The notes beneath the pieces were generated by a model. That model ran no database searches. It was not told the DNA's origin and saw only the letters and a list, made by a program, of their open reading frames with translations. Positions 3,597 through 31,432 of a stretch of DNA of 33,440 nucleotides are shown in pieces (position 1 is the first letter of the stretch; every line of letters begins with the position of its first letter). Origin of the DNA: an uncultured Candidatus Saccharibacteria bacterium (GTDB taxonomy: Bacteria; Patescibacteriota; Minisyncoccia; Phycocordibacterales; CAIZLB01); assembly GCA_964610005.1 (NCBI GenBank), contig CAZSTO010000001.1:1-33440 (forward strand). Reading direction: 5' to 3'. The translations under genes and the position numbers were made by a program.

Positions 3597-3630
3597 AAAA
3601 ATCCCGGTCCTTAAAAGGTCCGGGTTTTTT
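3597..3630. terminator. Bidirectional intrinsic terminator
   Basis: cccggtcc (3603-3610) / ggtccggg (3617-3624) stem with one mismatch, flanked by an A-run (3597-3601) and a T-run (3625-3630). It lies between the convergent ftsX and small lipoprotein ORF. Confidence 0.7.
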
Positions 3631-3652
3631 GATACCTTTGACGGTATAGGGT

Positions 3653-3820
3653 TTACCAACCGTTTTCTGGTTTGGGTATCTCTTGCCCATAGAATCCGTC
3701 ATCACCGTCCTGTGTCTTTGTGGAGGTACTAACAAAATGGACTCTGATCTCAAGAGGTACACATCCCTGGAGTAGAATGATCATGGTTAACACGAGGGCG
3801 GAGTATAAGAGGCTTTTCAT
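3653..3820 (-). CDS. Small (55 aa) predicted lipoprotein
   Basis: MKSLLYSALVLTMIILLQGC has signal-peptide features and a lipobox (L-Q-G-C). Start is taken at the internal ATG of ORF 3653..3841. G+C is visibly above the surroundings. Confidence 0.5.
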   Translation of the reverse strand: MKSLLYSALVLTMIILLQGCVPLEIRVHFVSTSTKTQDGDDGFYGQEIPKPENGW

Positions 3821-3829
3821 ACATATATA

Positions 3830-3857
3830 ACTATACAACATATAATAGATACATCAA
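3830..3857 (-). promoter_or_regulatory. Possible promoter of the small lipoprotein gene
   Basis: On the minus strand: TTGATG (3857-3852), 16 nt, TATAGT (3835-3830). The ATG at 3820 follows within about 10 nt. Confidence 0.35.
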
Positions 3858-3911
3858 GTATAAATAAATCACAGAAAATAAAAAATAGACATATCACTAT
3901 GGGCTAAATCA

Positions 3912-3920
3912 TGTCATAAT
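3912..3920 (+). promoter_or_regulatory. Extended -10 box 6 nt before the aldolase ATG (leaderless-type)
   Basis: TG-t-CATAAT, then atttct, then ATG at 3927. Confidence 0.5.
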
Positions 3921-3926
3921 ATTTCT

Positions 3927-4964
3927 ATGCAAGAGACTATTCAAAAAATATTTGCGACATATAAAGGTGTGTTGGCCGCCGATGAATCAGGAAAATCAAT
4001 TAATAAAAGATTTGAAGATTTAAATATTCCACAGACAATAGAAAATCATTTGGCCTTTAGAAAAATATTATTGGAGACATCTAACTTAAATAAATATATA
4101 AGTGGCGTTATCTTTCATGATGAGACTTTTAAGCAAGAGATTGTACCTGGAAAAACTTTTGTTCAATATTGTTCTGAACAGGGTATTGTTTCTGGTATAA
4201 AAGTTGATGAAGGGTTAACTGATATACCAAATTTTCCCGGTGAAAAAATTACCTTGGGTATAGATGATTTGCGTCCTCGTTTGAAAGAGTATTATGATCT
4301 AGGTGCTAGATTCTGTAAGTGGCGTTCTGTGATAGATGTAAAGCACACTACGGATGAGATATTAGATGTTAATATTAAGAATTTAGCCTTATATGCATCT
4401 TTAGCTGAAGAAGCGGGCATAGTGCCAATAATAGAGCCTGAAGTCTTATATGATGGCGAGCACACCATAGAGGAATGTCATGAGAAGATGTCATACGTTT
4501 TCGATATATTATTCAAAGAATTATCAGAATATAAAGTTGATATAAAAAATGTCATATTGAAAACAGCCATGGTTTTATCAGGTAAACAATTAGATCATAA
4601 GGCAGATTCAGATACCATAGCCAAGCTTACATCAGAGATTTTAAAAAATAAAGTACCAGGCAATATAGGCGGGGTTGTGTTTTTGTCGGGAGGGCAAACT
4701 CCTGTAGAAGCGACTCTGAATCTAAACAATATCATGAAAAACGGTCCTTATAATTTTCCTTTAACTTATTCATATTCTAGAGCATTGCAAGATCCTGTAT
4801 TGAAATCTTTTGCAGAAAATCCATCAGATATTGATAAAATACAATCTATATTTATAGATAGATTGGAGATGAACACTTTGGCCTTAAAAGGTGAATATGG
4901 TTTATCTAATGAGACAGGTCTATCATCAAACATTAATCAAGTAACACATAGTCAAGATTTATAA
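3927..4964 (+). CDS. fba: Fructose-bisphosphate aldolase, class I
   Basis: ADESGKSINKRF, KVDEG, ILKTAMV and VFLSGGQ resemble class I (Schiff-base) aldolase signatures. Confidence 0.85.
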   Translation: MQETIQKIFATYKGVLAADESGKSINKRFEDLNIPQTIENHLAFRKILLETSNLNKYISGVIFHDETFKQEIVPGKTFVQYCSEQGIVSGIKVDEGLTDIPNFPGEKITLGIDDLRPRLKEYYDLGARFCKWRSVIDVKHTTDEILDVNIKNLALYASLAEEAGIVPIIEPEVLYDGEHTIEECHEKMSYVFDILFKELSEYKVDIKNVILKTAMVLSGKQLDHKADSDTIAKLTSEILKNKVPGNIGGVVFLSGGQTPVEATLNLNNIMKNGPYNFPLTYSYSRALQDPVLKSFAENPSDIDKIQSIFIDRLEMNTLALKGEYGLSNETGLSSNINQVTHSQDL

Positions 4965-4968
4965 TAAT

Positions 4969-6123
4969 ATGTTGACATTTATATTAATAATACAAAGTTT
5001 ACTTATATTGGGTCTAATAGCGGCCATTTTGACCAAGAAAAGTGATAATAATTTAGAAAAACTTATAAGAGATGAGATATCTAGATCTCGTATGGAAAAT
5101 AGTTCTGGACAAAAAGAAATACGAGAAGAATTAAGTAATACTTTAAATAATAATTTTCAAAATATAACTCAAGTTGTTGAAGGTCGTCTAGGTATCTTAC
5201 AAAAAGATAATTCTGAAAAGCTTGAAAGAATGCGTGAGACCGTTGATGAAAAATTGCATGCTACCTTAGAGAGACGTTTCGGGGAATCATTTAAACTTGT
5301 TTCTGATAGACTTGAGCTTGTTCATAAAGGTCTTGGTGAAATGCAAGCTGTAGCAACAGGGGTGGGTGATTTGAAGAAGATTTTATCAAATGTTAAAACA
5401 CGTGGTACCTGGGGTGAGGTTCAGCTTGGTAATCTGATCGAAGAAATATTTACTCCGGATCAATATGAAAAAAATGTTAAGACTAAAAAAGGTTCAGCTG
5501 ATAATGTTGAATATGCTATAAAATTACCTGGGAATGATGATATTAAAAATATATGGTTGCCTATAGATGCTAAATTTCCATTAGAAGATTATCAAAGGCT
5601 TGTAGAAGCTAGGGACAACGGTATGGAAGATGTTTCTGTGGTATATAAAAACTTAGAAAATAGAATAAAATCAGAAGCAAAAGATATAAAAAATAAATAT
5701 ATAGATGTTCCATATACAACTGATTTCGGTATATTATTTTTACCAATAGAGAGTTTGTATGCTGAAGTTTTACGTATTCCTGGATTATTTGAATTTATAA
5801 GAAGGGAATATAAAGTTATAGTGACTGGTCCAACAACCATACAGGCTATATTAAATAGTTTACAAATGGGCTTTAAAACACTTTCTATACAAAAACGATC
5901 TTCAGAGGTATGGGAGATATTAGGTGTGGTCAAAAAAGAGTTTGGAAATTTTGGTCTATTACTTGAAAAAACCCATAAGAAGATACAAGAGGCTGGAAAT
6001 ACCATAGAGACAGCTTTAAGTAAAAACAGAAATATAGAAAAGAAATTAAATAAGGTAACAGATAGTCCTCTGTTGTCCGAAGGTGAGAAAGTTGACGATG
6101 TTCTAGAGATAGAAACAGAATAA
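4969..6123 (+). CDS. rmuC: DNA recombination protein RmuC
   Basis: N-terminal TM segment, long coiled coil, then RGTWGEVQLGNLIEE ... DAKFPLEDY, typical of the RmuC family. Confidence 0.85.
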   Translation: MLTFILIIQSLLILGLIAAILTKKSDNNLEKLIRDEISRSRMENSSGQKEIREELSNTLNNNFQNITQVVEGRLGILQKDNSEKLERMRETVDEKLHATLERRFGESFKLVSDRLELVHKGLGEMQAVATGVGDLKKILSNVKTRGTWGEVQLGNLIEEIFTPDQYEKNVKTKKGSADNVEYAIKLPGNDDIKNIWLPIDAKFPLEDYQRLVEARDNGMEDVSVVYKNLENRIKSEAKDIKNKYIDVPYTTDFGILFLPIESLYAEVLRIPGLFEFIRREYKVIVTGPTTIQAILNSLQMGFKTLSIQKRSSEVWEILGVVKKEFGNFGLLLEKTHKKIQEAGNTIETALSKNRNIEKKLNKVTDSPLLSEGEKVDDVLEIETE

Positions 6124-6132
6124 TGTTATAAT
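6124..6132 (+). promoter_or_regulatory. Extended -10 box 6 nt before ATG 6139
   Basis: TG-t-TATAAT, then tttaat, then ATG. Confidence 0.5.
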
Positions 6133-6138
6133 TTTAAT

Positions 6139-9658: not shown

Positions 9659-10452
9659 TAGTTTTTAGGATTTATAAAATTTTGTTCTATAACTTGTCTT
9701 AATATTTCATAAGGTATAGCACCTACACCTTGTCCTTGATTATCAAGTAACGGTATAAATTCTTTTTCAAATTTTATAACAGTGTAAGGTGTACCTTTAG
9801 CACCTGCTTTAAGTGAAGCCTCGTATTCTTCTTTTATTTTTGCGGCATATTTTCCACTATCTAAACATGTTTGAAATTTAGTTTTGTCTAATCCAACTTT
9901 TGCAGCTATTTCAGGTAGCTTTGATGGCTCCAATCCATCATTTGATGGAGTAACTGCATATAGTTCATCTAGGTATTTCCAGAACATATCTGATCCTCCT
10001 AATTCTGCTGCACATTCTGTTGCCTCAGCTTCTTTTGCAGCTTTTTTATGTAGAGGGTTTTCTCCATATGATATAGGGAAATGTCTATAAACCCAGGCCA
10101 CATCATTATTTTTACCATATTCATCAAATATCTTTTTTAATGTTACATGATATTGTTTACAGAAAGGACACTCTGTGTCTGAGTATTCTATTAGGACAAC
10201 TTTGGCATTTTTATTTCCTCTTATATGATCAGTATCTCTTATGTCTTCTACTTCTATTTTAGGTTCAGTCTTACTGAATAGATCTTTATTTTTTGTTGAT
10301 TTTGCAGGTTCACGGAAATATAATGCTGATGCTATTAATATACCAACAACTATTATAGATATAGGTGTTAAGTAATTTGCAATATTGTTCTTCTTTTTTA
10401 TAACTACTTGCTCTGTTGAATTAGCGTGAGTTGTATTTGTTGTATTTTCCAT
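9658..10452 (-). CDS. DsbA-family thiol:disulfide oxidoreductase, membrane anchored
   Basis: CxxC active site in the context YSDTECPFCKQYH, with an N-terminal TM anchor. Confidence 0.8.
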   Translation of the reverse strand: MENTTNTTHANSTEQVVIKKKNNIANYLTPISIIVVGILIASALYFREPAKSTKNKDLFSKTEPKIEVEDIRDTDHIRGNKNAKVVLIEYSDTECPFCKQYHVTLKKIFDEYGKNNDVAWVYRHFPISYGENPLHKKAAKEAEATECAAELGGSDMFWKYLDELYAVTPSNDGLEPSKLPEIAAKVGLDKTKFQTCLDSGKYAAKIKEEYEASLKAGAKGTPYTVIKFEKEFIPLLDNQGQGVGAIPYEILRQVIEQNFINPKN

Positions 10453-10458
10453 ATATGA

Positions 10459-10467
10459 ATTATATCA
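10459..10467 (-). promoter_or_regulatory. Extended -10 box 6 nt before the DsbA-like ATG
   Basis: On the minus strand: TG-a-TATAAT, then tcatat, then ATG (10452). Confidence 0.5.
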
Positions 10468-10472
10468 AAAAT

Positions 10473-10530
10473 AAAACATTTTAAAAATAAGATTGTTCAA
10501 GTGCAGAACAACTGATTTTTAAAATGTTTT
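10473..10530. terminator. Long perfect palindrome / bidirectional terminator
   Basis: 16-bp perfect arms aaaacattttaaaaat (10473-10488) / atttttaaaatgtttt (10515-10530) with an inner ttgttc/gaacaa stem. T-runs lie on both sides. It is downstream of the exonuclease-like gene. Confidence 0.65.
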
Positions 10531-10547
10531 AAAAAGTCACAGGGTTA

Positions 10548-11129
10548 TTAAAATGGCAATGAGTAAGTTAACATACCTTCACTTTCACCACTTTTTTCCC
10601 AATCTTTTGATTCTATTGGTATAACTCTCTTTTCATTTCCATCACTGTAGAATAATTGTCTCTCTTTGAAAGCGTATTCATAAACATCTTTAGTTACCTT
10701 AACATCGGCTTTACAGTATTCTATTATTTTATCCACCTCTCCGTTTTTCCACCAAGTTATGGCCTCTAAACCATTACCAGTTTTACCTATACCAAGAGTG
10801 GCTTGTGCTATGTTGTCCAGTCCTACACGTCTACCTATAACTTTTTGTACTTCTTTCATCAAGTCCACATGTCTAAATTTAGTTAAATCACCGTTATAAT
10901 ATTTGTTTAATATAGGAAGATCAAAATGATCACCATTAAAAGTTACTATAATATCAGTTGATTCTAGTCTGGGCCATAGAGTAGGGAGTGTCTCTATATT
11001 GAAACTCTCATATTCATTGGTTTTTGTATCATATATACACATTATAGATAAATCTAAGTCTTTTGGATCATTACTGCCAACCATTTGAAAAGTATTTTGA
11101 GTTTCTATATCTAGGTATATTTTATGCAT
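10548..11129 (-). CDS. RNase H-like / DEDD-type 3'-5' exonuclease domain protein
   Basis: YLDIETQ (Exo I-like), FNGDHFDLPIL (Exo II-like) and YCKADV (Exo III-like). Confidence 0.6.
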   Translation of the reverse strand: MHKIYLDIETQNTFQMVGSNDPKDLDLSIMCIYDTKTNEYESFNIETLPTLWPRLESTDIIVTFNGDHFDLPILNKYYNGDLTKFRHVDLMKEVQKVIGRRVGLDNIAQATLGIGKTGNGLEAITWWKNGEVDKIIEYCKADVKVTKDVYEYAFKERQLFYSDGNEKRVIPIESKDWEKSGESEGMLTYSLPF

Positions 11130-13115: not shown

Positions 13116-13152
13116 AAAAAGACCCCGGGCTCCCTGGAAGGGAACCCGAGGC
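13116..13152 (-). terminator. GC-rich intrinsic terminator of the PEP-CTERM gene
   Basis: Minus strand cctcgggttccc-ttcca-gggagcccgggg (12 bp including 2 G-U pairs) followed by tcttttt. Confidence 0.7.
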
Positions 13153-13171
13153 TTTCGGGTGTCGGCAGTCA

Positions 13172-13708
13172 TCAGTCCCTGCGTCGGCGCAGGAGAGTGA
13201 GTAGGCCGAGAGGTGTGATGAGGGCAACGGTCGGTTCGGGAATGGCGGTCGAGTTATACTGGACGTAGAACGATGTCTCTTTGCCGATATTATCGACGAT
13301 CTTCCCAGATGCCGAGAACTTGTCCGGGATGACGTCGATCACGGCTTGATGCACCGTGAATTCCCAGTATGACGTGCTCGCAAATGAATCCCGATACGGT
13401 GAGTTCAGCAGGATCTGCAGGTAGCCACCCAATGCGTCTGTCGAACGATACGTTTGTCCGACGACCCAGGGATTTCCGACGTTTGCGGTTCTGAGGAAGA
13501 CAGAGCCTCCGGCAGGACCGCTGAAGGTGAACCCGATGTTGTTGTTGGTCAATCCCGATGTTTCCACAGTGACTGGACCGGTGATGCTGTAGGTGTTACC
13601 CCCGGACGTATAGCCCGGGCCGGCAAACCACAGAATTGTGGCAGATTTGGCTGTCATTGAGACTGCCATGAAAATCGCGACAACGATTCGAACGAGGTGC
13701 TCTTTCAT
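13172..13708 (-). CDS. Secreted PEP-CTERM sorting-domain protein
   Basis: Signal peptide VVAIFMAVSMTAKS. C-terminus is IPEPTVALITPLGLLTLLRRRRD, that is PEP, a TM helix and an Arg cluster. Ends at TGA. One counted line (13201-13260) has 35 of 60 G+C. Confidence 0.8.
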   Translation of the reverse strand: MKEHLVRIVVAIFMAVSMTAKSATILWFAGPGYTSGGNTYSITGPVTVETSGLTNNNIGFTFSGPAGGSVFLRTANVGNPWVVGQTYRSTDALGGYLQILLNSPYRDSFASTSYWEFTVHQAVIDVIPDKFSASGKIVDNIGKETSFYVQYNSTAIPEPTVALITPLGLLTLLRRRRD

Positions 13709-13765
13709 TTTGATATGCTGGTTGGTTGTAGAGTTCGCTGGGTGAACAGCTCACTCAGTGTTTTT

Positions 13766-13794
13766 ATATTACCACTTGGTTATAAGTATGTCAA
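13766..13794 (-). promoter_or_regulatory. Near-consensus sigma70-type promoter of the PEP-CTERM gene
   Basis: On the minus strand: TTGACA (13794-13789), 17 nt, TAATAT (13771-13766). This gives a leader of about 50 nt ending in a CA-rich, G-poor tract before the ATG. Confidence 0.5.
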
Positions 13795-13877: not shown

Positions 13878-15521
13878 ATGAAATCAAAATTTATTTTCGT
13901 GATAGGTGGAGTTATGTCTGGAGTAGGAAAAGGAGTGGCGACATCATCACTTGGGCTTATTTTAAAAACCAAAGGTTACAAAGTTAATCTAGTAAAAGCT
14001 GACCCCTATTTAAATGTCGATGCAGGCACCATGAACCCAACGGAACATGGTGAAGTTTTTGTTATGAAAAACGGTTTAGAGACAGATCAAGATATGGGAA
14101 ATTATGAAAGATTTTTGCATCAAGATATTTCTCAAATAAATTATATGACTTCAGGCATGGTATATAAAACAGTTATAGATAAAGAAAGAGCTCTTGGCTA
14201 TGGAGGAAAATGTGTTGAGGCTATACCACATGTAAGAGATGAGATTATCAATAGATATAAAACTGCAGCAAAAGATGCTGACATAACTATAGTTGAGATT
14301 GGTGGAACTATTGGAGATTTTCAAAATGCCATGTTTATGGAAGCAGCCAAAACAATGAAATTAAAAAACCCCAAAGATGTAATGGTTATAGTTGTATCAT
14401 ATATGCCAACACCTGGAACTTTGGGAGAGATGAAATCAAAGCCTACACAAAGTGCCATCAGAGAATTGAATGGTTATGGATTACATCCTGATTTTATTAT
14501 TGCTAGAGCTTCAGCTCCGCTTGATGATAAAAGAAAAGAAAAGTTGGCTGTATCATGTAATGTATTAAAAGAAAATGTTATATCAGCACCAGATATAAAA
14601 AGTATATATGATGTACCACTTAATTTTAGTAAAGACAAAATAGGTGAGGCGGTACTTAAGGCATTATCCTTAAAAAATAAAAAAAATAATAAAGAATCAC
14701 AGAAACTTTGGTCTGATTGGAATAATTTTGTAAAAAATATTCATCTTAAAAAGAATAAAAATTTTCGTGTTGCCATGATTGGTAAATATTTTGATACTGG
14801 TGATTTTACACTTATGGATTCATATCTTTCTGTGATGGAAGCTTTGAAATTTGCTGCTGCTAAAGCCAAAGTCGGGGTAGAAATAGAGTGGGTTGATTCT
14901 AAAAACATAGAGAAAAATGGAGCGGTGCTTAAAGACGTATTTAAAAGATGTCATGGTCTTATAGTACCAGGAGGGTTTGGAACTACAGGTGTAGATGGAA
15001 TATTAAAATCTATTGAATATGTTCGTAAAAATAAAATACCTTATCTTGGTATATGTTATGGTATGCAACTTGCGGTTATAGAATACGCAACAAATGTTTT
15101 AGGTCTTAAAGGTGCTAATACTACTGAGATAGATAAAAATGCAAAACATAAAATTATAGATATAATGGAAAGTCAAAAAGAAAATCTAGCAAAACAAATG
15201 ATGGGTGGATCCATGAGACTTGGTTCATATAAATGTAAGTTAACAAAGGGAAGTGTAGTTCATGGTTTATACAATAAAGATGAAGTGGTTGAGAGACATA
15301 GACATAGATATGAAGTTAATAATGAATATGTAGAAGAGTTAGAGAAAAAAGGTTTGAAGTTTTCAGGAAAATCATTAGATGGAAAATTGATGGAGATGAT
15401 AGAGCTTGCAAAAGATAAACATCCCTATTTTGTGGCAACACAATCTCATCCAGAGTTTTTGTCGAGACCGACAACTTCACATCCTTTGTTTGATGGGTTG
15501 GTGAGAGCAATGATGAAATAA
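13878..15521 (+). CDS. pyrG: CTP synthase
   Basis: MKSKFIFVIGGVMSGVGKG synthetase N-terminus and the GICYGMQ glutamine amidotransferase motif. Start is taken at the internal ATG of ORF 13758..15521. Confidence 0.95.
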   Translation: MKSKFIFVIGGVMSGVGKGVATSSLGLILKTKGYKVNLVKADPYLNVDAGTMNPTEHGEVFVMKNGLETDQDMGNYERFLHQDISQINYMTSGMVYKTVIDKERALGYGGKCVEAIPHVRDEIINRYKTAAKDADITIVEIGGTIGDFQNAMFMEAAKTMKLKNPKDVMVIVVSYMPTPGTLGEMKSKPTQSAIRELNGYGLHPDFIIARASAPLDDKRKEKLAVSCNVLKENVISAPDIKSIYDVPLNFSKDKIGEAVLKALSLKNKKNNKESQKLWSDWNNFVKNIHLKKNKNFRVAMIGKYFDTGDFTLMDSYLSVMEALKFAAAKAKVGVEIEWVDSKNIEKNGAVLKDVFKRCHGLIVPGGFGTTGVDGILKSIEYVRKNKIPYLGICYGMQLAVIEYATNVLGLKGANTTEIDKNAKHKIIDIMESQKENLAKQMMGGSMRLGSYKCKLTKGSVVHGLYNKDEVVERHRHRYEVNNEYVEELEKKGLKFSGKSLDGKLMEMIELAKDKHPYFVATQSHPEFLSRPTTSHPLFDGLVRAMMK

Positions 15522-15555
15522 AAAATTACCGCCGCGAGCGCAAGGCTCGTGGCGG
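15521..15555. terminator. GC-rich hairpin terminator, copy 1 of an identical 27-nt element
   Basis: ccgccgcgagc-gcaag-gctcgtggcgg (15529-15555). On the minus strand it is followed by taattttt and serves cassette A; it may also end pyrG. It is identical to 16125-16151. Confidence 0.7.
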
Positions 15556-15579
15556 GTTTGGGTACGGCAGCTGGTTTCG

Positions 15580-16029
15580 TCAGACCTTCATCGTGAATTC
15601 GATTGGGCTAATCGTGAAAGAAGTTCCTTTTTCATTACGGTGAAATGTTGAGAAAGAGTGGTATAGGATACCAACTCGACGATCCTGGGTTTTTCCTGTC
15701 ACTGACCTGATGTAGGTGCAGAGACGAAGTGTTTCCAGGGAGCTAGTGGGGATGGTGGAAATCATCGCCTGAAGAGCCTTCGCAAAAAGGGTCTTCTCGT
15801 GAACTTCTTCCGGATCGTTTGGTTGCGAGCATCGATTGCTCAACAACTCCCTTGCAGAGTTGCAAATCGCCGCTTCTTCTTCGTCCGAAAAGGTAATCAG
15901 CATCTCTTCTCCGATTTTGCCGAAGTCGCGGTAAAAGATGATTGCACTCATCAACAAAACAGCGAAGCTGTCATTGATGGAGTCCATTGATTCTTGTTGT
16001 TTTAATTCCCCGTTGATATAGATATCCAT
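15580..16029 (-). CDS. Hypothetical protein, GC-rich cassette A (149 aa)
   Basis: Uninterrupted ORF ending in TGA, bracketed by a promoter/leader repeat and a terminator. Line 15781-15840 has 30 of 60 G+C. No family recognised. Confidence 0.6.
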   Translation of the reverse strand: MDIYINGELKQQESMDSINDSFAVLLMSAIIFYRDFGKIGEEMLITFSDEEEAAICNSARELLSNRCSQPNDPEEVHEKTLFAKALQAMISTIPTSSLETLRLCTYIRSVTGKTQDRRVGILYHSFSTFHRNEKGTSFTISPIEFTMKV

Positions 16030-16047
16030 GGTGGTTTTCTGGTTAGT

Positions 16048-16101
16048 GTTCGGACCCTCGTTTCTCTAAAGGGGTCTGTTAAGTTGAAGTATAATCATTT
16101 T
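16048..16101 (-). repeat. Leader/-10 repeat, copy A (about 54 nt)
   Basis: gttcggaccctcgtttctctaaaggggtctgttaagttgaagtataatcatttt. It differs from copy B (16632-16685) by one indel and two or three substitutions. It contains a gaccc/gggtc hairpin. Confidence 0.85.
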
Positions 16102-16115
16102 AAAGCTTTTGTAAA
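16088..16115 (-). promoter_or_regulatory. Possible promoter of cassette A
   Basis: On the minus strand: TTTACA (16115-16110), 16 nt, TATACT (16093-16088). The -10 lies inside the repeat. Confidence 0.45.
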
Positions 16116-16116
16116 T

Positions 16117-16151
16117 AAAAAACTCCGCCGCGAGCGCAAGGCTCGTGGCGG
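16117..16151 (-). terminator. GC-rich hairpin terminator, copy 2 (cassette B)
   Basis: The same 27-nt ccgccgcgagcgcaaggctcgtggcgg (16125-16151), followed on the minus strand by agtttttt. Confidence 0.75.
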
Positions 16152-16167
16152 GAGAGAGGGTGATGTC

Positions 16168-16611
16168 TCATGACGGCATGACGTATTCACCGTCAACGAT
16201 TTGTCCATCGTGTTCCTTGGGGTAATAATTGTAAGGCAATAGAATCTGAAACACCTCCGGACCAGTTTTGATGGCCGCTCCGTTTTCAAATCGGGTTTGC
16301 CGAACGACAGTAAGTTGAGGTTGAGGATCTGGATGTCTATCCATATATCCAGAACCATAATCCAGGGATTCGATGAATTTGGTGTTGACCTCTTCTGCGA
16401 TTAAATGCATCAGTCTAGGATCATCGCCGCAACCCAATTCAGCGGCAAGGGAGGATAGTTCATCGGGGGCAAGTTCGATGATAACCATCTCGCCTCTGTT
16501 TTCGTTATAAAGAGCAAGATGAATCCGGAGAATTTCCATAAGTTTTGTGCCTCCATAAACATTGAATGGGCAGACTTCAGCTCCTGGAAAGGCTTGTGTT
16601 GTTGATTTCAT
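16168..16611 (-). CDS. Hypothetical protein, GC-rich cassette B (147 aa)
   Basis: ORF ending in TGA. Start is taken at MKSTTQ (ATG 16611) because the upstream codons of ORF 16168..16683 lie in the duplicated leader. No family recognised. Confidence 0.6.
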   Translation of the reverse strand: MKSTTQAFPGAEVCPFNVYGGTKLMEILRIHLALYNENRGEMVIIELAPDELSSLAAELGCGDDPRLMHLIAEEVNTKFIESLDYGSGYMDRHPDPQPQLTVVRQTRFENGAAIKTGPEVFQILLPYNYYPKEHDGQIVDGEYVMPS

Positions 16612-16631
16612 GACGTAGTGTTTGGTGTTAA

Positions 16632-16685
16632 GTTCTGGACCCTCGTTTCTTTTAAGGGGTCTGTTAAGTTGAAGTATAATCATTT
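16632..16685 (-). repeat. Leader/-10 repeat, copy B
   Basis: gttctggaccctcgtttcttttaaggggtctgttaagttgaagtataatcattt, near-identical to 16048-16101. Confidence 0.85.
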
Positions 16686-16700
16686 CACTCGATAAATCAA
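16673..16700 (-). promoter_or_regulatory. Possible promoter of cassette B
   Basis: On the minus strand: TTGATT (16700-16695), 16 nt, TATACT (16678-16673). Confidence 0.45.
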
Positions 16701-17932: not shown

Positions 17933-17960
17933 TTGACAGATTTATCTGTTTTGTTAGAAT
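17933..17960 (+). promoter_or_regulatory. Near-consensus promoter pointing into the 3' end of MazF-like gene 1
   Basis: TTGACA (17933-17938), 16 nt, TAGAAT (17955-17960). Confidence 0.45.
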
Positions 17961-17966
17961 AAGGTC

Positions 17967-18062
17967 AATCTCTTTATGAGACACAATGGGTTATCCCACT
18001 TGCCAGGATCATAATGGTCCGGCTTAAATCATCTCCGTATAATGTCAATTATACGGTTTTGA
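17967..18062 (+). ncRNA. Candidate ~95-nt antisense RNA convergent with MazF-like gene 1
   Basis: The predicted start is about 7 nt after the -10. Internal hairpin near 18003-18022. Terminator ccgtataat (18035-18043) / attatacgg (18048-18056) plus TTTT (18057-18060) lies inside the last codons of the minus-strand CDS. Confidence 0.4.
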
Positions 18063-18457
18063 ATTTTTATGAAATCATTCATAGAAATATAACCTATATA
18101 TTTACTAAGCCTTTTTGTATCGAGTGCTCTTATCTGAGATATAATAGCTGATTGCTCAATGTCTTGTAATAATAGTTTTATATAATATTTATTATCTTTA
18201 TTTTTAGTACTTAGGGGTATACCCCAAAACATCTCGTTATTAAATTTTTTAAATATTAAAACAGGACGATGAAAGTTCTCGCCTTTACCATCTTGTTCGT
18301 ATCCGATATTTTCACCCCAAAAACACCAATAGACCTGACATTCATTAATGATTAGATTATTTCGTTTAGTTTTATTTATTATAATTTTATTTATGATCCA
18401 GGATATAAATTTTTTTGACATTAATACATCATACGATATGGGTGTTAAAATTTTCAT
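18029..18457 (-). CDS. PemK/MazF-family toxin-like protein, paralog 1, with no adjacent antitoxin ORF
   Basis: VYWCFWGENIGYEQDGKGENFHRPVLIF ... PLSTK ... SQIRALDTKRL fits the MazF fold pattern GD.W.....G.E..G.RP.l.l ... QiR..D..R. It ends at TGA. An alternative start is ATG 18421. Confidence 0.75.
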   Translation of the reverse strand: MKILTPISYDVLMSKKFISWIINKIIINKTKRNNLIINECQVYWCFWGENIGYEQDGKGENFHRPVLIFKKFNNEMFWGIPLSTKNKDNKYYIKLLLQDIEQSAIISQIRALDTKRLSKYIGYISMNDFIKIQNRIIDIIRR

Positions 18458-19800: not shown

Positions 19801-20274
19801 ATGGAAGATTGGGAATTTATAGAAAAATATAATAAATGGAATATAAAAAAGCAAAATATACATTTTTTAGACAATAGAGATATTTACTTTAAAGAGGGTG
19901 ATATCTGGTGGTGTTCTATTGGTTTAAATATAGGTGATGAATCATATGGAAAGGGTAGGGATTTTAGAAGACCTATATTAATATTTAAAAAATTATCAAA
20001 AGATTTATGTATAGCACTACCTTTGACCTCAAAACTTAAAAAAGGGACCTGGTTTGTTGATATTATTCTAAATAATCAGTCTAGATGTGTCATGTTGTAT
20101 CAGATTCGTGTACTGAATAAAAAAAGATTTTCTATAAAGATAGGTGAAATATGTGATGACGATTTCAATAAAGTAAAAAGAAAACTCGAGAATCTATTCG
20201 AGTTTTCATTAAATCGTCACTCGACAAATGTCGAGATCGAAAGGGTTGATGCGACTCTCAACCCTCAAAGGTGA
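19801..20274 (+). CDS. PemK/MazF-family toxin-like protein, paralog 2, with no adjacent antitoxin ORF
   Basis: GDIWWCSIGLNIGDESYGKGRDFRRPILIF ... PLTSK ... YQIRVLNKKRF. It carries a 22-aa tail absent from paralog 1, encoded by hairpin-rich DNA. It ends at TGA. Confidence 0.75.
   Translation: MEDWEFIEKYNKWNIKKQNIHFLDNRDIYFKEGDIWWCSIGLNIGDESYGKGRDFRRPILIFKKLSKDLCIALPLTSKLKKGTWFVDIILNNQSRCVMLYQIRVLNKKRFSIKIGEICDDDFNKVKRKLENLFEFSLNRHSTNVEIERVDATLNPQR
20175..20272 (-). ncRNA. Candidate ~98-nt antisense RNA covering the last ~32 codons of MazF-like gene 2
   Basis: Three perfect hairpins: 20242-20265 (8 bp), 20220-20235, and 20180-20207 (10 bp). The last is followed on the minus strand by TTTTT (20175-20179). 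The predicted start coincides with the toxin stop codon. Confidence 0.5.
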
Positions 20275-20278
20275 TTAT

Positions 20279-20306
20279 ATTTTAGCAAATGGATAATCTT
20301 TGTCAA
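20279..20306 (-). promoter_or_regulatory. Near-consensus promoter of the antisense RNA
   Basis: On the minus strand: TTGACA (20306-20301), 16 nt, TAAAAT (20284-20279). Confidence 0.5.
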
Positions 20307-20309
20307 ATC

Positions 20310-20318
20310 TGTTATACT
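20310..20318 (+). promoter_or_regulatory. Extended -10 box driving the structured RNA upstream of mod
   Basis: TG-t-TATACT, placed back-to-back with the antisense-RNA promoter. Confidence 0.4.
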
Positions 20319-20324
20319 AAGCAA

Positions 20325-20456
20325 GTCGCCACAATCAAATATAAGTAACACTACAAGTGTATACCTGCAGTCGTGTATAGTGAGGGGTGCCTCGATGCAC
20401 ATGACTGCAGGCCTTGCGCTTGTATTGATTGTGGCGACCATCGGGCATCCCTTTTT
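20325..20456 (+). ncRNA. GC-rich fold-back RNA or structured 5' leader of the mod gene
   Basis: 5' gtcgccacaatcaa (20325-20338) pairs with ttgattgtggcgac (20425-20438), extendable to about 20 bp. There is an inner 9-13 bp stem cctgcagtc (20364-20372) / gactgcagg (20403-20411), an apical gagg/cctc hairpin and a T5 run at 20452-20456. Confidence 0.45.
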
Positions 20457-20501
20457 GTCGTTTAATAATTAATATAAAGGTGCTTGGTCCGATGAACATA
20501 G

Positions 20502-22184
20502 ATGTCGCCTATGTCATTAGAGGAATTAAGTAGAGAAGATCTTTTGACTCGTGTAAAAGAGTTGGAAGCTAGATTAAAGAAAAATCAAAAATATGGTTTA
20601 GTATGGGAATCTAAAGAAGAACAAGTTGTTTTAGACTGTAAAGATAAATATCCTATATTAAAGCGTGTTGAAGATAGAAGTATTAGAGGAGGTGTTGGTC
20701 CAATGAATTATTTGATTGAGGGTGATAATTATCATGCTTTGAAGATCTTGCAATATACACATAAGGGTAAGATTGATGTGATTTATATAGATCCTCCGTA
20801 TAATACAGGGAATAAGGATTTTATCTATAATGATGATTTTGTTGATAAAGAAGATGGTTATAGACACAGTAAATGGCTGTCATTTATGGAGAGAAGGTTG
20901 AAGTTGGCAAAAGAATTATTGAAGGATACGGGGGTTATATTTATAAGTATAGATGATAATGAACAAGCACAGTTGAAATTATTGTGTGATGGGGTTTTTG
21001 GCGAGAGGAATTTTATAAGCTTATTTCCTAGATTGACAGTTAAAGGAGGTAAAACACAAAGCTTATTTAATACAAGTAACATAGATTATGTATATGTTTA
21101 TTCTAAGGATATTAATAAATCTCGTTTTAATAAATTATTAGTTAAAGATGATAATGCTTTTAAATATAAAGATAAATATTTTGATGAGAGAGGCTTTTAT
21201 CATACTAAACAATCTTTAGATAGTGTTAGTTTAGGGTATGTAAAATCTTTAGATTATCCAATAAATCATGAAGGTGTAACCTATTATCCTGGTGGTGTTA
21301 TTGAAAATAATGGATATAGATGGACTTGGTCTAAAGATAAGTTGGATTTCGCAATAAAAAATGATTTTGTGGAATTTAAAAATGGAAGAATATGGCCTAA
21401 AAAATATTTATTAGCTAGTATTGAAAAAGATAAAAATGGTTATTATATTAAATATGAAGATAGGGTAAAAAATTATTCACAATTAACTTTTATTGAAAAT
21501 CTATATTCAAATACAAATGGAACAAATACCTTAAGAGAGTTAGATGTTACGGATTTTAATAATGCAAAACCTGTTGATTTAATAAAAACAATTTGTGAAA
21601 TGTCTGGATCTAAATCCTCCATCATCCTCGATTTCTTCGCTGGCTCCGGGACCACAGGACATGCCGTACTTGAACTCAATAAACAAGATGGTGGTAATCG
21701 TCAATTCATACTTGTAACAAACAATGGTGACGAAAAGAGTGAGCATAAGATCGCTGAAAATATAACTTATGAAAGATTAAAAAGAGTCATGAGGGGTTAC
21801 ACAAACAAGAAAGGTGAAAAGGTAGAAGGTCTGGGTGGTAATCTTGATTATATGCGTTGTGAGTTTATAGATAAGATTGATCATCAAGATAGTATGAGGC
21901 TCAAGATCACAGAAAATTGTCTAGATACAATAATGTTTAAAGAGGGTAATGATAAAATCATAAAAAACACAGATGATTATACTATCACCAGTAGTACTGT
22001 TCTAAATATGGATAATATGACAGCTATATATAAAACCTGGAATGATGAAAATATAGATAAATTTAAAAAAGATATAGAGAAAATAAATAGACCGGTAAAC
22101 GTGTATTTAAATCCATTCATTGATAAAGATGAATTTAATTATTTGGATAAGGTTAATATTAAAAATATTCAAGACATAATATAA
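20502..22184 (+). CDS. mod: Type III restriction-modification methyltransferase (Mod)
   Basis: DPPYNTG (motif IV) lies N-terminal to FFAGSGTTGHAV (motif I), with a variable region between. The res gene follows after 4 nt. Confidence 0.85.
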   Translation: MSPMSLEELSREDLLTRVKELEARLKKNQKYGLVWESKEEQVVLDCKDKYPILKRVEDRSIRGGVGPMNYLIEGDNYHALKILQYTHKGKIDVIYIDPPYNTGNKDFIYNDDFVDKEDGYRHSKWLSFMERRLKLAKELLKDTGVIFISIDDNEQAQLKLLCDGVFGERNFISLFPRLTVKGGKTQSLFNTSNIDYVYVYSKDINKSRFNKLLVKDDNAFKYKDKYFDERGFYHTKQSLDSVSLGYVKSLDYPINHEGVTYYPGGVIENNGYRWTWSKDKLDFAIKNDFVEFKNGRIWPKKYLLASIEKDKNGYYIKYEDRVKNYSQLTFIENLYSNTNGTNTLRELDVTDFNNAKPVDLIKTICEMSGSKSSIILDFFAGSGTTGHAVLELNKQDGGNRQFILVTNNGDEKSEHKIAENITYERLKRVMRGYTNKKGEKVEGLGGNLDYMRCEFIDKIDHQDSMRLKITENCLDTIMFKEGNDKIIKNTDDYTITSSTVLNMDNMTAIYKTWNDENIDKFKKDIEKINRPVNVYLNPFIDKDEFNYLDKVNIKNIQDII

Positions 22185-22188
22185 ATCT

Positions 22189-24507
22189 ATGAAATTTACA
22201 CTTAAAAATTATCAAGAAAAAGCTGTTAATTCTCTAAAAGACAGAGTTTATAATTTTCTTTCATTTAATGATTCAGAAAAGAGAATAATAACCTTTAAAG
22301 CACCTACAGGTTCAGGAAAAACTGTTATGATGGCTTCTTTTATAGAGAATTTGATAGAATCAAATAAAGATTTAAAGAATATAGATTTTACATTTTTATG
22401 GTTATCTATAGGTACAGGTGATTTACATAATCAGAGTAAAAAGTCTCTAGAGAAAAATATCGGTGATAATATAAAAATACAAAGTATAGATGAGGTATAT
22501 GGTACATAAAAAAATGAATTATTAAAGGATTCGGTAATGGTTTCTAATTGGGAAAAAGTGTGGACCAAAAATAAAAAAACAGGCGATTGGAAAAGTATTG
22601 CCATGAGAGATGGTGATTATATAAATTTTCGAGAAATATTAAATAATACAAATAGTATTGGTAGAAAGATTGTATTGATAATAGATGAATCATACATAGC
22701 TACCGATGCTGCTAGAGGTAGAGAGATTGTTGATTTGATAAATCCTAATATCGTAATAGAAGTATCGGCTACTCCGAATCTAAGGTTATCAGGTAAAGAT
22801 ATTATAGATAATAAAGGTTGGATTGAAGAGATAAATCCACAAGATGTTATAGATGAAGAAATGATAAAGGATCAAATAATAGTTAATTCTGATTTTGTTT
22901 TATTTAAAAAAGATGACAGCGATCAAACTGTCTTAAGAAGTGCTATTAATAAACGTGATGAATTGGTTAATCTCTATAAAGAATATAATATAAATGTAAA
23001 CCCACTTTTATTAATACAATTACCAAATAGCAGAGATGGTGAATCTGCTATGGAAATGGTCTTGGATTTTTTAGAGAAAGAAAAAGGGGTAAAACAAGGC
23101 GATGATAGATTAGCTATATGGTTAAGTGAAAAAGATATTAGTGATAGAAATATAGATAACATAAGTAAAAATAATTCCAAACAAGAATATCTCATATTTA
23201 AACAAGCCATAGCAACGGGTTGGGATTGTCCCAGGGCTCAAATATTATTAAAATTCAGAGAAGTTAAAAGTGATGTATTCGAAATACAAGTTTTAGGTAG
23301 GATATTAAGGACTCCTGAGCAAAAGCATTATTCTATAGAAGCTCTAAATAAGGCTTATGTGTATGTGAATTCTGATGAAATCAGTTTTAAAATAGAAGAT
23401 TATAATGCAAAGATTTTGGGTGATTTACCATCTATAAGAAAAAGGGATTATAAAGATATAAAATTGAATTCTTTTTATCAAGAACGTAAAGACTATCAAG
23501 ATATAAAATCAGAATTTAAAAAGGTATTATCGGATTGCTTTATAGATAAGTTGAATTTGATAGAAGGGGACTATAATAAAAATATAAAAAAATTAGAAAA
23601 AGAAGGTTGGAAATTTGAATTGGAAGATATATATCATAAAGTTATTTCAGATATTAGTGTTGATGTAAAAACAATAGATCAATATTATCTGCCCGTAGAA
23701 GATGATACAAAAGAAACTTTGAATATAAGTGATAGACAAATAGAGATAATATCTAGAAATATATTTAAAAAGCTGATGAACCCTTTTACTAATATTGCCA
23801 GGTCTATACCAGTGATGAATCTTGCCTGGTATGCTTTCTGTCGAAATATTTTTGGGGAAAATCTAATGAAAAAAGATTTTATAAGCTCTCAGACTTTACT
23901 TATAATGAATTTGCAAAAGGTTCAGCAGATATTTATAGAGGCTGTAGAAAAATATTCGAAAATCAAAAAGAAAAAACTTCAAGCAGAAAGTGAACATTAT
24001 AGTATATTTGAAATACCTAAGATTGATTATTTTAATTCTGAATTAGTTGATAATATAAATTATGATAAGTATATTTTAGATAATTGTTATTTGTATAAAG
24101 ATAGATCTAAACCAGAAAGAGATTTTGAGAATTTGTTGAATAATTCCAAAAAAGTAAAATGGTGGTATAAAAACGGCGTAAATCGTGATGATTATTTTGG
24201 TATTAAATATGAATATGATAATAAAGACGGTAAAGAAACTATTCACACCTTTTATCCTGATTATGTGGTTAAATTTAATGATGAAAAAATAGGTATATTT
24301 GAAACAAAGGCAGAGTCAGATCCAGATGCTCACACTAAAACGAAGGTAAAAGCTGAGGAATTATACAAATATATACAAAAAGAGAATAAAATAGGTAAAA
24401 AACTTCTTGGGGGAATTGTTGTATTTAAGGAAAAAGAAAATAAATGGAGAATACAAAATAAAAAAGAATATTCACTAACAGAAGGCTGGGAAGAGTTAAT
24501 TTTTTAA
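22189..24507 (+). pseudogene. res: Type III restriction enzyme Res subunit interrupted by an in-frame TAA
   Basis: KAPTGSGKT (helicase motif I), LIIDESY (motif II-like) and a C-terminal PD-(D/E)xK-like YPDYVV...GIFETKA. TAA at 22507-22509 is in the same frame as both halves (106 + 656 aa). Confidence 0.75.
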
Positions 24508-30324: not shown

Positions 30325-30329
30325 AACAA

Positions 30330-31046: not shown

Positions 31047-31060
31047 GAAATCTTCAAAAT

Positions 31061-31098
31061 AAAATAGCTAAACGAAAAAGTTTAGCTATTTTATTTTT
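31061..31098. terminator. AT-rich intrinsic terminator after pheS
   Basis: 13-bp perfect stem aaaatagctaaac (31061-31073) / gtttagctatttt (31080-31092) followed by a T-run. Confidence 0.7.
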
Positions 31099-31124
31099 CA
31101 GATTTAGTAATAAGAAAAATAAAT

Positions 31125-31164
31125 AAAAAAAATCGGTGTGAGGCCCAGCCACGAGCCTCACACC
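31125..31164 (-). terminator. GC-rich intrinsic terminator (minus strand)
   Basis: ggtgtgaggc (31135-31144) / gcctcacacc (31155-31164), followed on the minus strand by eight T (31125-31132). Confidence 0.75.
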
Positions 31165-31282
31165 TATCCATGTCTCACATCGCCATCCAGCGAAATATTT
31201 TGGGTTTGAGGACGGGACCATCGGAACTACTGCAAAGCTCTCTGATCCCGTCCAACAACAACCCATCCGAAGAAAGTGTTAC
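31125..31282 (-). ncRNA. Candidate ~155-nt GC-rich structured RNA between pheS and pheT
   Basis: It has a promoter at 31289-31317 and a strong terminator, with an 8-bp stem ggacggga/tcccgtcc (31211-31218 / 31247-31254 region). The only ATG-initiated frame runs through the terminator without a stop. Confidence 0.4.
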
Positions 31283-31288
31283 ATATTT

Positions 31289-31317
31289 ATTGTATGCCTG
31301 TTTGTAGAGTTTTGCAA
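31289..31317 (-). promoter_or_regulatory. Sigma70-type promoter of the candidate RNA
   Basis: On the minus strand: TTGCAA (31317-31312), 17 nt, TACAAT (31294-31289). Confidence 0.45.
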
Positions 31318-31318
31318 A

Positions 31319-31364
31319 TAAAAACAAAAGGCTCGGGGAATGTCATGAGTTTGACTCCCCGAGC
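31319..31364 (-). terminator. Second GC-rich terminator or attenuator (minus strand)
   Basis: gctcgggg (31331-31338) / ccccgagc (31357-31364), followed on the minus strand by cttttgttttt. Confidence 0.6.
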
Positions 31365-31397
31365 GCAACCGCATGGATACCTCCTTTCTGGTTGTTG
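31319..31397 (-). other. Short transcription unit with a perfect Shine-Dalgarno and ATG running straight into a terminator hairpin
   Basis: On the minus strand: gaAAGGAGGtatccATG (ATG 31374-31372). Codons 3-14 form the terminator stem, and the 31-codon frame stops only beyond the T-run. It may be a leader peptide/attenuator or a small RNA. Confidence 0.3.
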
Positions 31398-31403
31398 TTT
31401 AAT

Positions 31404-31432
31404 AGTTTAACTCTGTATTAAAAAATATGCAA
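31404..31432 (-). promoter_or_regulatory. Possible promoter of the short SD-containing unit
   Basis: On the minus strand: TTGCAT (31432-31427), 17 nt, TAAACT (31409-31404). Confidence 0.35.

Follow-up and report, generated by a model that had tools for sequence, protein, structure and literature searches.

Phage morons are single genes, each with its own promoter and terminator, that lie between two genes adjacent in related genomes and have a deviant base composition; they are said to have been described by Juhala, Hendrix and colleagues in the lambdoid phages HK97 and HK022. The islands studied here resemble them in that a single ORF is equipped with a promoter and an intrinsic terminator of its own, in that they lie exactly between genes that are neighbours in relatives (CTP synthase and DUF4015 in the relatives L084, L004 and L005, pheS and pheT in L097), and in a composition clearly unlike that of the surroundings. 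Unlike morons, they reside in a bacterial chromosome amid housekeeping genes, none of their ORFs matches phage families, some of the units are non-coding, and cores are exchanged between conserved ends. Among surface proteins, the vlp, vsp and vsa proteins of Mycoplasma combine conserved 5' expression and signal regions with variable bodies, and in one island gene, too, a strongly diverged body is framed by a promoter, a leader and a sorting signal that are conserved, in an organism with a small genome that probably also lives attached to other cells. The tandem repeats, phase-variable tracts and silent donor copies of the Mycoplasma systems were however not seen here, and the variation is found between lineages, not inside one genome. 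In Patescibacteria, genomic islands and gene transfer are documented; the islands carry accessory genes of deviant composition, and most exchange stays inside the phylum, donors from elsewhere being occasional (PMC12455944). Our locus shares with them the phylum, the deviant accessory genes and a restriction-modification system in a variable region, but it consists of single-gene islets of 0.2-1.2 kb rather than multi-gene islands, and one islet has stayed in place, and G+C-rich, in several lineages. These moron-like islets, probably acquired horizontally, are of an already known kind; they illustrate the turnover of genes and do not amount to a new genetic system.

The window, i.e., the whole stretch of 33,440 nucleotides analysed, is chromosomal DNA of ~30% GC, and the relatives of its CTP synthase place the host in the Parcubacteria. 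A sequence-only reading had singled out six G+C-rich patches. In five of them the GC content is above that of any background window of equal length (mean ~29% GC), namely 3631-3825 (44.6% GC, z 3.5), 13121-13760 (55.3%, z 9.5), 15522-16690 (45.8%, z 8.0), 20205-20460 (43.0%, z 3.4) and 31133-31400 (47.8%, z 4.6), while the sixth, 17960-18030 (42.3%, z 2.1), is weak, 2.8% of background windows being as high. The compositional mosaic is real. It is also visible in codon usage, with a GC3 of 0.40-0.66 in four island ORFs against a mean of 0.21 and a maximum of 0.26 in 30 host genes, and the contrast in stop codons was reported exactly: all three large island ORFs end in TGA, whereas the 30 host genes use TAA (25), TGA (3) and TAG (2). 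Other generalizations of that reading went too far. Not every G+C-rich patch is intergenic, as 150-nt stretches of ~44% GC also occur within ftsE (2244-2393), hisS (19349-19511) and mod (21595-21756); a gene is in fact touched, as patch 20205-20460 covers the final 70 nt of a PemK gene; and not all units are on the minus strand, as the promoter at 17933 and the terminator at 18035 form a plus-strand unit.

The G+C-rich patches are of mixed kinds, comprising swappable small accessory genes and short structured RNAs, and the content of the intergenic slots that bear them varies between sister genomes. We contend that the patches are probably a mixed set of self-contained accessory transcription units in variable slots, the two large ones being protein cassettes of foreign type that undergo recombinational turnover. 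Cores would be replaced by homologous recombination within conserved handles, and the high G+C would derive from an origin in, or ongoing exchange with, G+C-richer genomes, with candidate sources elsewhere in the Patescibacteria or among bacteria that bear PEP-CTERM proteins, for example Planctomycetota. Expression would rely on a promoter of sigma-70 type, a leader of ~50 nt that is rich in A and C and lacks a Shine-Dalgarno sequence, and an intrinsic terminator.

The island at 13.1-13.8 kb contains a minus-strand gene for a protein of 178 aa (13172..13708; 55% GC, GC3 0.66, TGA stop). Its promoter and leader, which form the 5' handle, occupy 13709..13794 on the same strand (TTGACA, 17 nt, TG-preceded TAATAT); the leader of ~50 nt has an A/C-rich tract at its end and no Shine-Dalgarno sequence. 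An intrinsic terminator with a 14-bp stem, including 9 G-C pairs, lies at 13122..13152 (minus strand). The protein, predicted from its sequence to be secreted and surface-located, begins with a signal peptide, continues as a beta-barrel core (AlphaFold model with pLDDT 77, no match in the PDB) and ends in a PEP-CTERM-like anchor (IPEP, hydrophobic helix, RRRRD). The signal peptide and the Pro-Glu-Pro, hydrophobic helix and Arg cluster at the extreme C-terminus are also found in PEP-CTERM/exosortase cargo (PF07589, TIGR02595), and Planctomycetota homologues carry a PEP-CTERM annotation. Unlike such cargo, the protein is below the curated score cut-offs in a Pfam/NCBIfam profile search, no exosortase gene is present within the window, and the host belongs to the Parcubacteria, from which neither exosortase systems nor outer membranes are known; the tail may be a simple membrane anchor.

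Six lineages have this gene in the same slot (named relatives L084, L086, L087, L088 and L098), and sampled segments of its flanking genes are 74-94% identical (CTP synthase 87-94%), and the island has 47-55% G+C in every copy. The terminator is almost unchanged in L084 and L087. While L087 retains the core at 92% identity, the handles of L084 are 90-96% identical to those of the window (5' promoter/leader 96%) around a core with 61% DNA and 34-42% protein identity, showing that in L084 only the gene core was exchanged, between the conserved 5' promoter/leader and 3' anchor/terminator handles. The protein family comprises ~20 clusters. Its members stand out in composition where they occur in low-GC Parcubacteria (three different sites), and fit the composition of their own genome in two contigs, one of 43% GC from Sedimentisphaerales (Planctomycetota) and another of 56% GC. 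Since these homologues are compositionally at home in Planctomycetota, the favored history is a foreign origin with later turnover by recombination. The closest non-Parcubacterial relatives share only ~25-30% identity, and in a rough tree Parcubacterial and outside members are not clearly interleaved, so that a single old transfer is also compatible with the data.

Had the gene been in its slot ever since these lineages diverged, the fact that its G+C has not fallen would have to be explained otherwise, for instance by selection, by biased gene conversion or by repeated re-import. Along these lines, the G+C-rich genes might be old residents whose G+C is upheld in place, either by GC-biased gene conversion resulting from frequent recombination or by selection on the sequence or mRNA of leadered genes for secreted proteins. 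We regard this as a possible but rather unlikely explanation. The constant slot and equally raised G+C in six lineages speak for it, as do the relatives elsewhere in low-GC Parcubacteria that also exceed their genome's G+C, the mosaic alleles as evidence of recombination at this locus, the lack of clear interleaving in the tree and island leaders that do not resemble the Shine-Dalgarno leader of a Planctomycete homologue. The counter-evidence consists of the unequal G+C of the islands (44-55%) and of three properties of the island at 15.5-16.7 kb: it is missing in three close relatives, one of its ORFs is an orphan, and the other has a homologue in L088 with G+C down to 37%, as expected for a foreign gene under assimilation. 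Equally elevated G+C in sister genomes, which the earlier reading had named as the sign of an ancient, selection-driven composition if seen at all sites, is found at 13.1-13.8 kb in the six lineages and not at 15.5-16.7 kb.

The latter island consists of two tandem minus-strand cassettes. Cassette B has its leader and promoter at 16612..16700 (TTGATT, 16 nt, TATACT), an ORF of 147 aa from the ATG at 16611 (16168..16611; GC3 0.40, TGA stop; ~44% GC in a 171-aa reading) and a terminator at 16118..16152 (hairpin 16125-16152). It is followed by the promoter and leader of cassette A at 16030..16115 (TTTACA, 16 nt, TATACT), an ORF of 149 aa without a signal peptide (15580..16029; 45% GC, GC3 0.54, TGA stop) and a terminator at 15520..15556 (hairpin 15529-15556) that repeats that of cassette B. 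The two ORFs, predicted to encode small cytoplasmic proteins, are unrelated to each other; 49 nt of the leader (16052-16100 in cassette A) are 96% identical and 43 nt of the terminator 86%. The cassette A ORF has no match in Pfam, NCBIfam, PADLOC or PHROGs and its structure model is unusable (pLDDT 42), and a search among 5.8 billion proteins with the cassette B ORF found only itself. In L084/L099, L004 and L005 the site is empty, with CTP synthase adjoining the DUF4015 gene, and the -35 box of cassette B lies within host DNA that the empty site of L084 likewise has. L088 has a single cassette in the same slot, with an ORF of 148 aa homologous to that of cassette A. These comparisons show that at the same slots cassettes were gained, lost and replaced. 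Together with the GC3 values and the Planctomycetota homologues, the empty sites fit the earlier suggestion of a G+C-richer donor for the two large islands, a suggestion that does not extend to the small patches.

Mobile promoter-gene-terminator modules had also been proposed, and the architecture does fit. It is nevertheless improbable, in our judgement, that the islands form one family of self-mobilising elements, of transposon, miniature inverted-repeat or integron-cassette type, that carry a cargo gene with promoter and terminator. Such elements would account for tandem units with a common leader and terminator around different ORFs, for the T-run, -35 box and -10 box that are re-formed at the A/B junction and likewise after the single unit of L088, and for inserts placed exactly between genes adjacent in relatives. 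Signs of self-movement are however lacking: neither terminal inverted repeats nor target-site duplications occur in the tandem cassettes, the window contains no transposase, integrase or reverse transcriptase, and the leader and terminator have no exact match in 2.9 million viral contigs. Moreover, common ends are restricted to the two tandem units, the leaders and terminators of the other islands being unrelated; the island ORFs match no phage or defence family (PHROGs, PADLOC); and the anchored-protein gene is fixed in one slot across lineages.

Our preferred reading of mixed accessory units assigns the small patches largely to RNA. Their G+C is due to RNA stems, with structure z-scores of about -5 to -8, the one exception being a lipoprotein gene. 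This gene, a minus-strand ORF of 55 aa at 3653..3820 with a lipoprotein-type signal peptide (MKSLLYSALVLTMIILLQGC), has GC1/2/3 of 0.51/0.36/0.51 and a TAA stop and gives an NCBIfam lipoprotein hit of low significance (E 0.02); it shares with ftsX, on the plus strand, a two-way terminator read from the sequence at 3598..3633 as a G+C-rich hairpin between an A-run and a T-run. In L099 it is missing beside the aldolase gene, with a KilA-N gene in its place. Two putative small transcription units meet PemK toxin genes. The plus-strand unit at 17933..18066 (TTGACA, 16 nt, TG-preceded TAGAAT; terminator 18035-18056), a structured RNA of ~100 nt (z -5.5), is convergent with the PemK gene at 18029-18457 (minus strand) and overlaps its 3' end. 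The minus-strand unit at 20172..20306 (TTGACA, 16 nt, TG-preceded TAAAAT; terminator 20207-20180), also a structured RNA of ~100 nt (z -5.1), is antisense to the final ~100 nt of the PemK gene at 19801-20274 (plus strand). Between this PemK gene and a type III methylase gene lies a long imperfect hairpin of ~115 nt (20325..20438; z -8.4 and -7.3). The pheS-pheT spacer contains an insert of 281 nt (z -6.6 as a whole) on the minus strand. Its unit at 31125..31317 has a promoter (31317-31289; TTGCAA, 17 nt, TACAAT) that is also present in L096, a structured RNA of ~160 nt and a strong terminator, formed by the hairpin 31164-31135 and a T-run. In the upstream part at 31320..31432 there are a promoter-like site (TTGCAT, 17 nt, TAAACT), a GGAGG-containing tract rich in A and C, a questionable ORF of 31 codons and a hairpin (31364-31331) with a T-run behind it. 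The spacer measures ~45 nt in L097, and L095 and L096 have different inserts.

RNA structure that demands G+C, another of the earlier proposals, thus applies to the small patches, with their strong structure (terminators, antisense RNAs, hairpin and pheS-pheT unit). That all islands, the large ones included, are structured non-coding RNA genes needing G+C stems is very unlikely, given the protein-level homologues of ORFs in the large islands, the conservation of signal-peptide and anchor motifs and a beta-barrel modelled with confidence; in addition, no Rfam family reached the gathering score in the window or scored better than E = 0.1, and no tRNA or tmRNA gene was found in it. The chance that the mosaic arose as an artefact of assembly or binning, with foreign G+C-rich reads joined to an AT-rich contig, is negligible despite the abrupt composition steps at the island borders, because three independent assemblies from different samples and assemblers show the same junctions (99.86-100% identity), diverged relatives have homologous islands in the same slots, and the islands, of 0.2-1.2 kb, are placed precisely between intact genes.

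The two styles of expression that had been read from the sequence apply to the large cassettes. A -10-like box lies 4-10 nt upstream of the ATG in 17 of the 21 host genes that head operons, 6 of these boxes having the extended TGn form, much as had been noted for AT-rich genes; judging from the box positions, most operon-heading core genes would be leaderless. Exact TTGACA boxes, with spacers of 16-17 nt, were confirmed at three positions, 13794 (minus), 17933 (plus) and 20306 (minus). All promoters are consensus matches only, and promoter-like sites are not enriched (29 found against 34 expected in shuffled sequence), whereas terminator-like sites are (10 against 4). Long leaders had been attributed to the patch ORFs in general; the large-cassette genes do have A/C-rich leaders of ~50 nt without a Shine-Dalgarno sequence, but the lipoprotein gene, which ends in TAA, is host-like in its AT-rich upstream DNA and has no long leader. 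Nor is the style of the cassettes simply that of a donor, because the Planctomycete homologue of the anchored protein has a GAGGAG Shine-Dalgarno sequence, and the Parcubacterial copies, with their A/C-rich leaders, have none. Hairpins in the leaders are weak (z -0.6 to -2.7). In the 30 nt upstream of the ATG, the fraction of C is 0.29 in 12 island-type genes (4 from the window and 8 from relatives) and 0.11 in 21 host genes (p = 1e-4).

The gene content of the window is one of housekeeping and envelope functions: it encodes an ECF-type sigma factor, ftsE and ftsX, a class I aldolase, rmuC, a DsbA-like protein, an ABC exporter, CTP synthase, a DUF4015 protein, hisS, a type III restriction-modification system, type IV pilus proteins, a glycosyltransferase, and pheS and pheT, at an overall GC content of 30.6%. 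In a collection of species-level genomes, the nearest loci by CTP synthase all belong to metagenome-assembled Parcubacteria, Paceibacteria or Nomurabacteria, and the top ones are 85%, 83%, and 73% identical. Within this AT-rich background the sequence-only reading had described six G+C-rich islands, and the compositional mosaic is borne out: five patches (3631-3825, 13121-13760, 15522-16690, 20205-20460, and 31133-31400) rise above every same-length background window, with z values of 3.4 to 9.5, while the sixth (17960-18030) is only marginal (z 2.1). GC3 is 0.40-0.66 in the island ORFs versus a mean of 0.21 and a maximum of 0.26 in 30 host genes, and the stop-codon counts given earlier, with TGA closing the three clearly G+C-rich ORFs and TAA most of the AT-rich ones, were reproduced exactly. 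The junctions recur at 99.86-100% identity in three contigs from other samples and assemblers, so that the mosaic is not chimeric and an assembly artifact is ruled out by three independent assemblies. An alternative code with TGA read as an amino acid is likewise ruled out, given that table 11 leaves long host ORFs unbroken.

Other generalizations about the islands need qualification. That all G+C-rich patches are intergenic is mostly true, the exceptions being a few intragenic stretches at about 44% GC and one patch that overlaps the 3' end of a gene; that all units lie on the minus strand fails for one unit, which is on the plus strand. As for the promoters and terminators assigned to the islands, terminator-like sites are enriched against shuffled sequence and promoter-like sites as a class are not. 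No tRNA or tmRNA was found in the window with ARAGORN, and against Rfam 15 nothing in the window reached the gathering score and nothing in the islands reached E <= 1.

The slot between the ABC exporter gene and the CTP synthase gene holds a gene (13172-13708, minus strand) for a 178-aa protein with a signal peptide, a beta-barrel core and a PEP-CTERM-like anchor, referred to here as the anchored protein. The same slot is occupied by copies in the related loci L084, L086, L087, L088, and L098, which are 47-55% GC in every relative, and the surrounding contig genes are at about 30% GC. Compared with L084 at the DNA level, the window is 93% identical in CTP synthase, 92% in the ABC gene, 96% in the 5' handle (promoter and leader of the anchored-protein gene), 61% in the core, and 90% in the 3' handle (anchor and terminator), with a core protein identity of 34-42%; the L084 core cannot be aligned to the window as DNA, homology ending at the ATG and restarting at the I-P-E-P codons. 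Compared with L087, the values are 94% for CTP synthase, 99% for the 5' handle, 92% for the core (93% as protein), and 89% for the 3' handle, and L087 combines a window-type core with an L084-type anchor. These alignments suggest allelic replacement by recombination within the conserved ends rather than gradual divergence. L084 also carries, at 2368-2450 and 5' of the anchored-protein promoter, an extra G+C-rich terminator-like hairpin (GCGTATGTCGGACAAGTCTGACATGCGC, then a T-run), perhaps left over from a neighbouring cassette that has been lost.

The anchored protein terminates in ...AIPEPTVALITPLGLLTLLRRRRD before the stop codon, a tail in which IPEP, a hydrophobic helix and RRRRD all stand at the extreme C-terminus. 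Across nine aligned family members, P-E and two arginines are conserved in every one and the second proline in seven. The tail thus has the form of a PEP-CTERM signal and differs from it in curated thresholds and genomic setting: no Pfam match was obtained for the protein at E <= 0.1, its best NCBIfam score (18.4 bits against a cut-off of 65) falls below the curated threshold, and no exosortase was matched among the 29 host ORFs scanned in the window. PF07589 is present in the distant homologues P0040, P0041, and P0044. For the candidate phyla radiation, literature searches turned up nothing relevant on exosortase or PEP-CTERM. The beta-barrel was modelled confidently by AlphaFold (pLDDT 77, 78 residues >= 90), and Foldseek found no significant PDB match to the model (best TM-score 0.34). 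The family is small, with 3 relatives in an indexed search of 5.8 billion proteins, 23 in a full HMMER scan of 1.84 billion representatives, and 19 in a profile search. Members are found at different sites in other low-GC Parcubacteria, again G+C-richer than their own genome (47% vs 36% in L090 and 40% vs 29.5% in L091). Distant members, which have an N-terminal motif of their own, match the local composition where they occur, on one contig from Sedimentisphaerales (Planctomycetota) at 43% GC and on another at 56% GC; a GAGGAG Shine-Dalgarno sequence stands 5' of the Sedimentisphaerales copy. Parcubacterial and distant members were not clearly interleaved in a rough neighbour-joining tree.

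Two tandem units make up the island at 15.5-16.7 kb, cassette A (ORF 15580-16029) and cassette B (ORF 16168-16611), both on the minus strand and each with a -10 box, leader, ORF and terminator. They have common ends, a 49-nt leader that is 96% identical and a 43-nt terminator that is 86% identical, around mutually unrelated ORFs of 149 and 147 aa. Neither ORF belongs to a known family in Pfam, NCBIfam, PADLOC or PHROGs, and for the island ORFs altogether these databases gave nothing beyond weak C-terminal PEP-CTERM and weak lipoprotein-signal matches; a homology search with the cassette B ORF retrieved only itself, and AlphaFold, run on the cassette A protein without an alignment, gave an unusable model (pLDDT 42). 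The DUF4015 gene directly follows CTP synthase in L084/L099 (CTP synthase gene 93% identical), L004, and L005, and the empty site in L084 has 10 nt in place of the 1.17 kb of the window. For its -35 box the second unit draws on host DNA. In L088 this CTP synthase-DUF4015 slot holds a single unit, whose leader is related and whose ORF is homologous and has 37% GC.

Cassette and host genes also differ in their upstream regions. A TAnnnT box stands 4-10 nt 5' of the ATG in 17 of 21 operon-heading host genes, with an extended TGn in 6 of these, although AT-rich DNA readily produces such boxes by chance; a Shine-Dalgarno sequence is absent from all 21. Genes in which the -10 box (often extended TGnTAnAAT) lies close to the ATG include those at 1945, 6139, 6415, 9658 (minus strand), 16726, 18503 (minus strand), 28321, and 31480. 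Judged from these upstream sequences, leaderless mRNAs would appear to be the rule in this Parcubacterium; a literature search on leaderless genes in Patescibacteria returned nothing relevant. The three large island genes have their -10 box 50-60 nt 5' of the ATG, and the final 30 nt are A/C-rich. The cytosine share of the 30 nt preceding the ATG is 0.29 in 12 island-type genes from the window and its relatives versus 0.11 in host genes (p = 1e-4), a rule from which the lipoprotein-like gene at 3653-3820 departs with its AT-rich, host-like upstream region. Leader hairpins are weak (z -0.6 to -2.7), and consensus folding across relatives, on a poor alignment, yielded no convincing covariation.

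In this lineage, slot content varies next to CTP synthase, hisS, the aldolase gene and pheS-pheT. L005 has two other secreted-protein genes, and L004 a different small ORF, Smr domain-like by eye, between the ABC gene and CTP synthase. A 55-aa lipoprotein-like ORF shares the stretch 3598-3845 with a two-way terminator; in L099 an AT-rich KilA-N gene adjoins the aldolase gene instead. A structured minus-strand unit lies between pheS and pheT (31125-31432); this spacer is about 45 nt long in L097, contains a different hairpin in L095, and carries in L096 a partly homologous insert with the same promoter as the window. G+C-rich ORFs stand beside CTP synthase in L006, L055, and L074 too. The best reading of the islands is that accessory units, small, autonomous and foreign in compositional type, turn over here, partly through recombination in their shared ends. 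This agrees with published work in which islands are numerous in Patescibacteria and gene exchange runs mostly within the group (PMC12455944). G+C-rich donors exist within Parcubacteria, because the loci fetched here span about 26% to 66% GC.

By eye, L005 has DUF3800-type ORFs, one of them apparently split, at 1338-1934 and 10265-10831, where the slots of the window hold other accessory genes, and the same intergenic sites thus seem to be reused. Genes of 50-57% GC are located immediately 3' of CTP synthase in L006 (7660-8470) and L055 (7800-9500), the L006 gene, on the minus strand, encodes a signal peptide behind an A/C-rich leader and has a strong terminator; the hosts are more distant low-GC Parcubacteria, and the phenomenon is therefore wider than this genus.

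In the main rival to turnover, selection or biased gene conversion would keep island G+C high where it stands, and the 13.1-13.8 kb island, which persists across six lineages, speaks for it. The G+C of the small patches is largely that of RNA stems. A compositional island in an AT-rich genome is not always recent foreign DNA: one island here has stayed G+C-rich in the same slot through several lineages, and the small ones reflect such stems. A further proposal, which we regard as rather unlikely, is that some Parcubacteria possess a dedicated variable-surface-protein locus, in which beta-barrel cores would be exchanged by recombination within a fixed frame for expression and anchoring made up of promoter, A/C-rich leader, signal peptide, PEP-CTERM-like anchor and terminator. 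Planctomycetota, which might be the hosts, also have the family, and the protein might serve host attachment or mimicry. The lasting high G+C would be a sign of genes still being traded with a G+C-rich pool, or of biased gene conversion driven by recombination; the cassettes at 15.5-16.7 kb, with their shared ends, could follow the same logic for cytoplasmic proteins.

Turnover of accessory units invites comparison with several known systems. The units resemble morons in that a single ORF lies between its own promoter and a factor-independent terminator, both consensus matches only (13172-13708, 15580-16029, and 16168-16611), in their insertion between genes that are adjacent in relatives (CTP synthase/DUF4015 in L084, L004, and L005; pheS/pheT in L097), and in their deviant composition. 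They differ from morons in lacking phage residence: the flanks are housekeeping genes, there is no PHROGs match, and viral contigs contain no exact match to the common leader or the common terminator. Unlike transposable and miniature inverted-repeat elements, the islands have no flanking inverted or direct repeats and no transposase domain; around the 15.5-16.7 kb units neither terminal repeats nor target duplications were found, and the window contains no recombinase. In contrast to integron cassettes, there is no integrase in the window, the cassettes carry promoter-like sites of their own, and a terminator stands where an attC-type site would be. The swapping of a core between conserved ends is a likeness to the variable surface-protein loci of small-genome bacteria. 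The locus does not amount to a new kind of system; it adds a clear new example from a phylum that has received little study.

Patescibacteria have tiny genomes and are mostly attached to other cells, and their surface variation and gene uptake are poorly known. The locus offers a concrete, testable example of fixed slots beside housekeeping genes that are filled, emptied and refilled with single-gene cassettes, of a PEP-CTERM-type tail on a surface-protein family in a lineage where it is unexpected, and of alleles apparently built by core exchange between conserved ends, with leaderless-looking core genes contrasting clearly with leadered cassette genes.

Two PemK/MazF-like toxin genes, paralogues of 34% identity, flank hisS (17933-18457 and 19801-20306 including RNA units). 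On the 3' end of each converges a structured RNA unit of about 100 nt (17933-18066, plus strand; 20172-20306, minus strand) with a perfect TTGACA, an extended -10 and a terminator. No protein antitoxin ORF was found beside either gene, and the convergent units could be RNA antitoxins, an arrangement unusual for this toxin family. A near-perfect long hairpin of 115 nt (20325-20438, z -8.4), just 5' of the type III methylase gene, might act in termination, in regulation or as a recombination site. L005 lacks the whole block of PemK gene and restriction-modification system (19801-24507) between hisS and pilB. In the window, the type III restriction subunit (22189-24507) is divided between a 106-aa ORF with the ResIII N-terminus, ending at 22509, and a 656-aa ORF starting at 22537, and this res gene may be disrupted or phase-variable.
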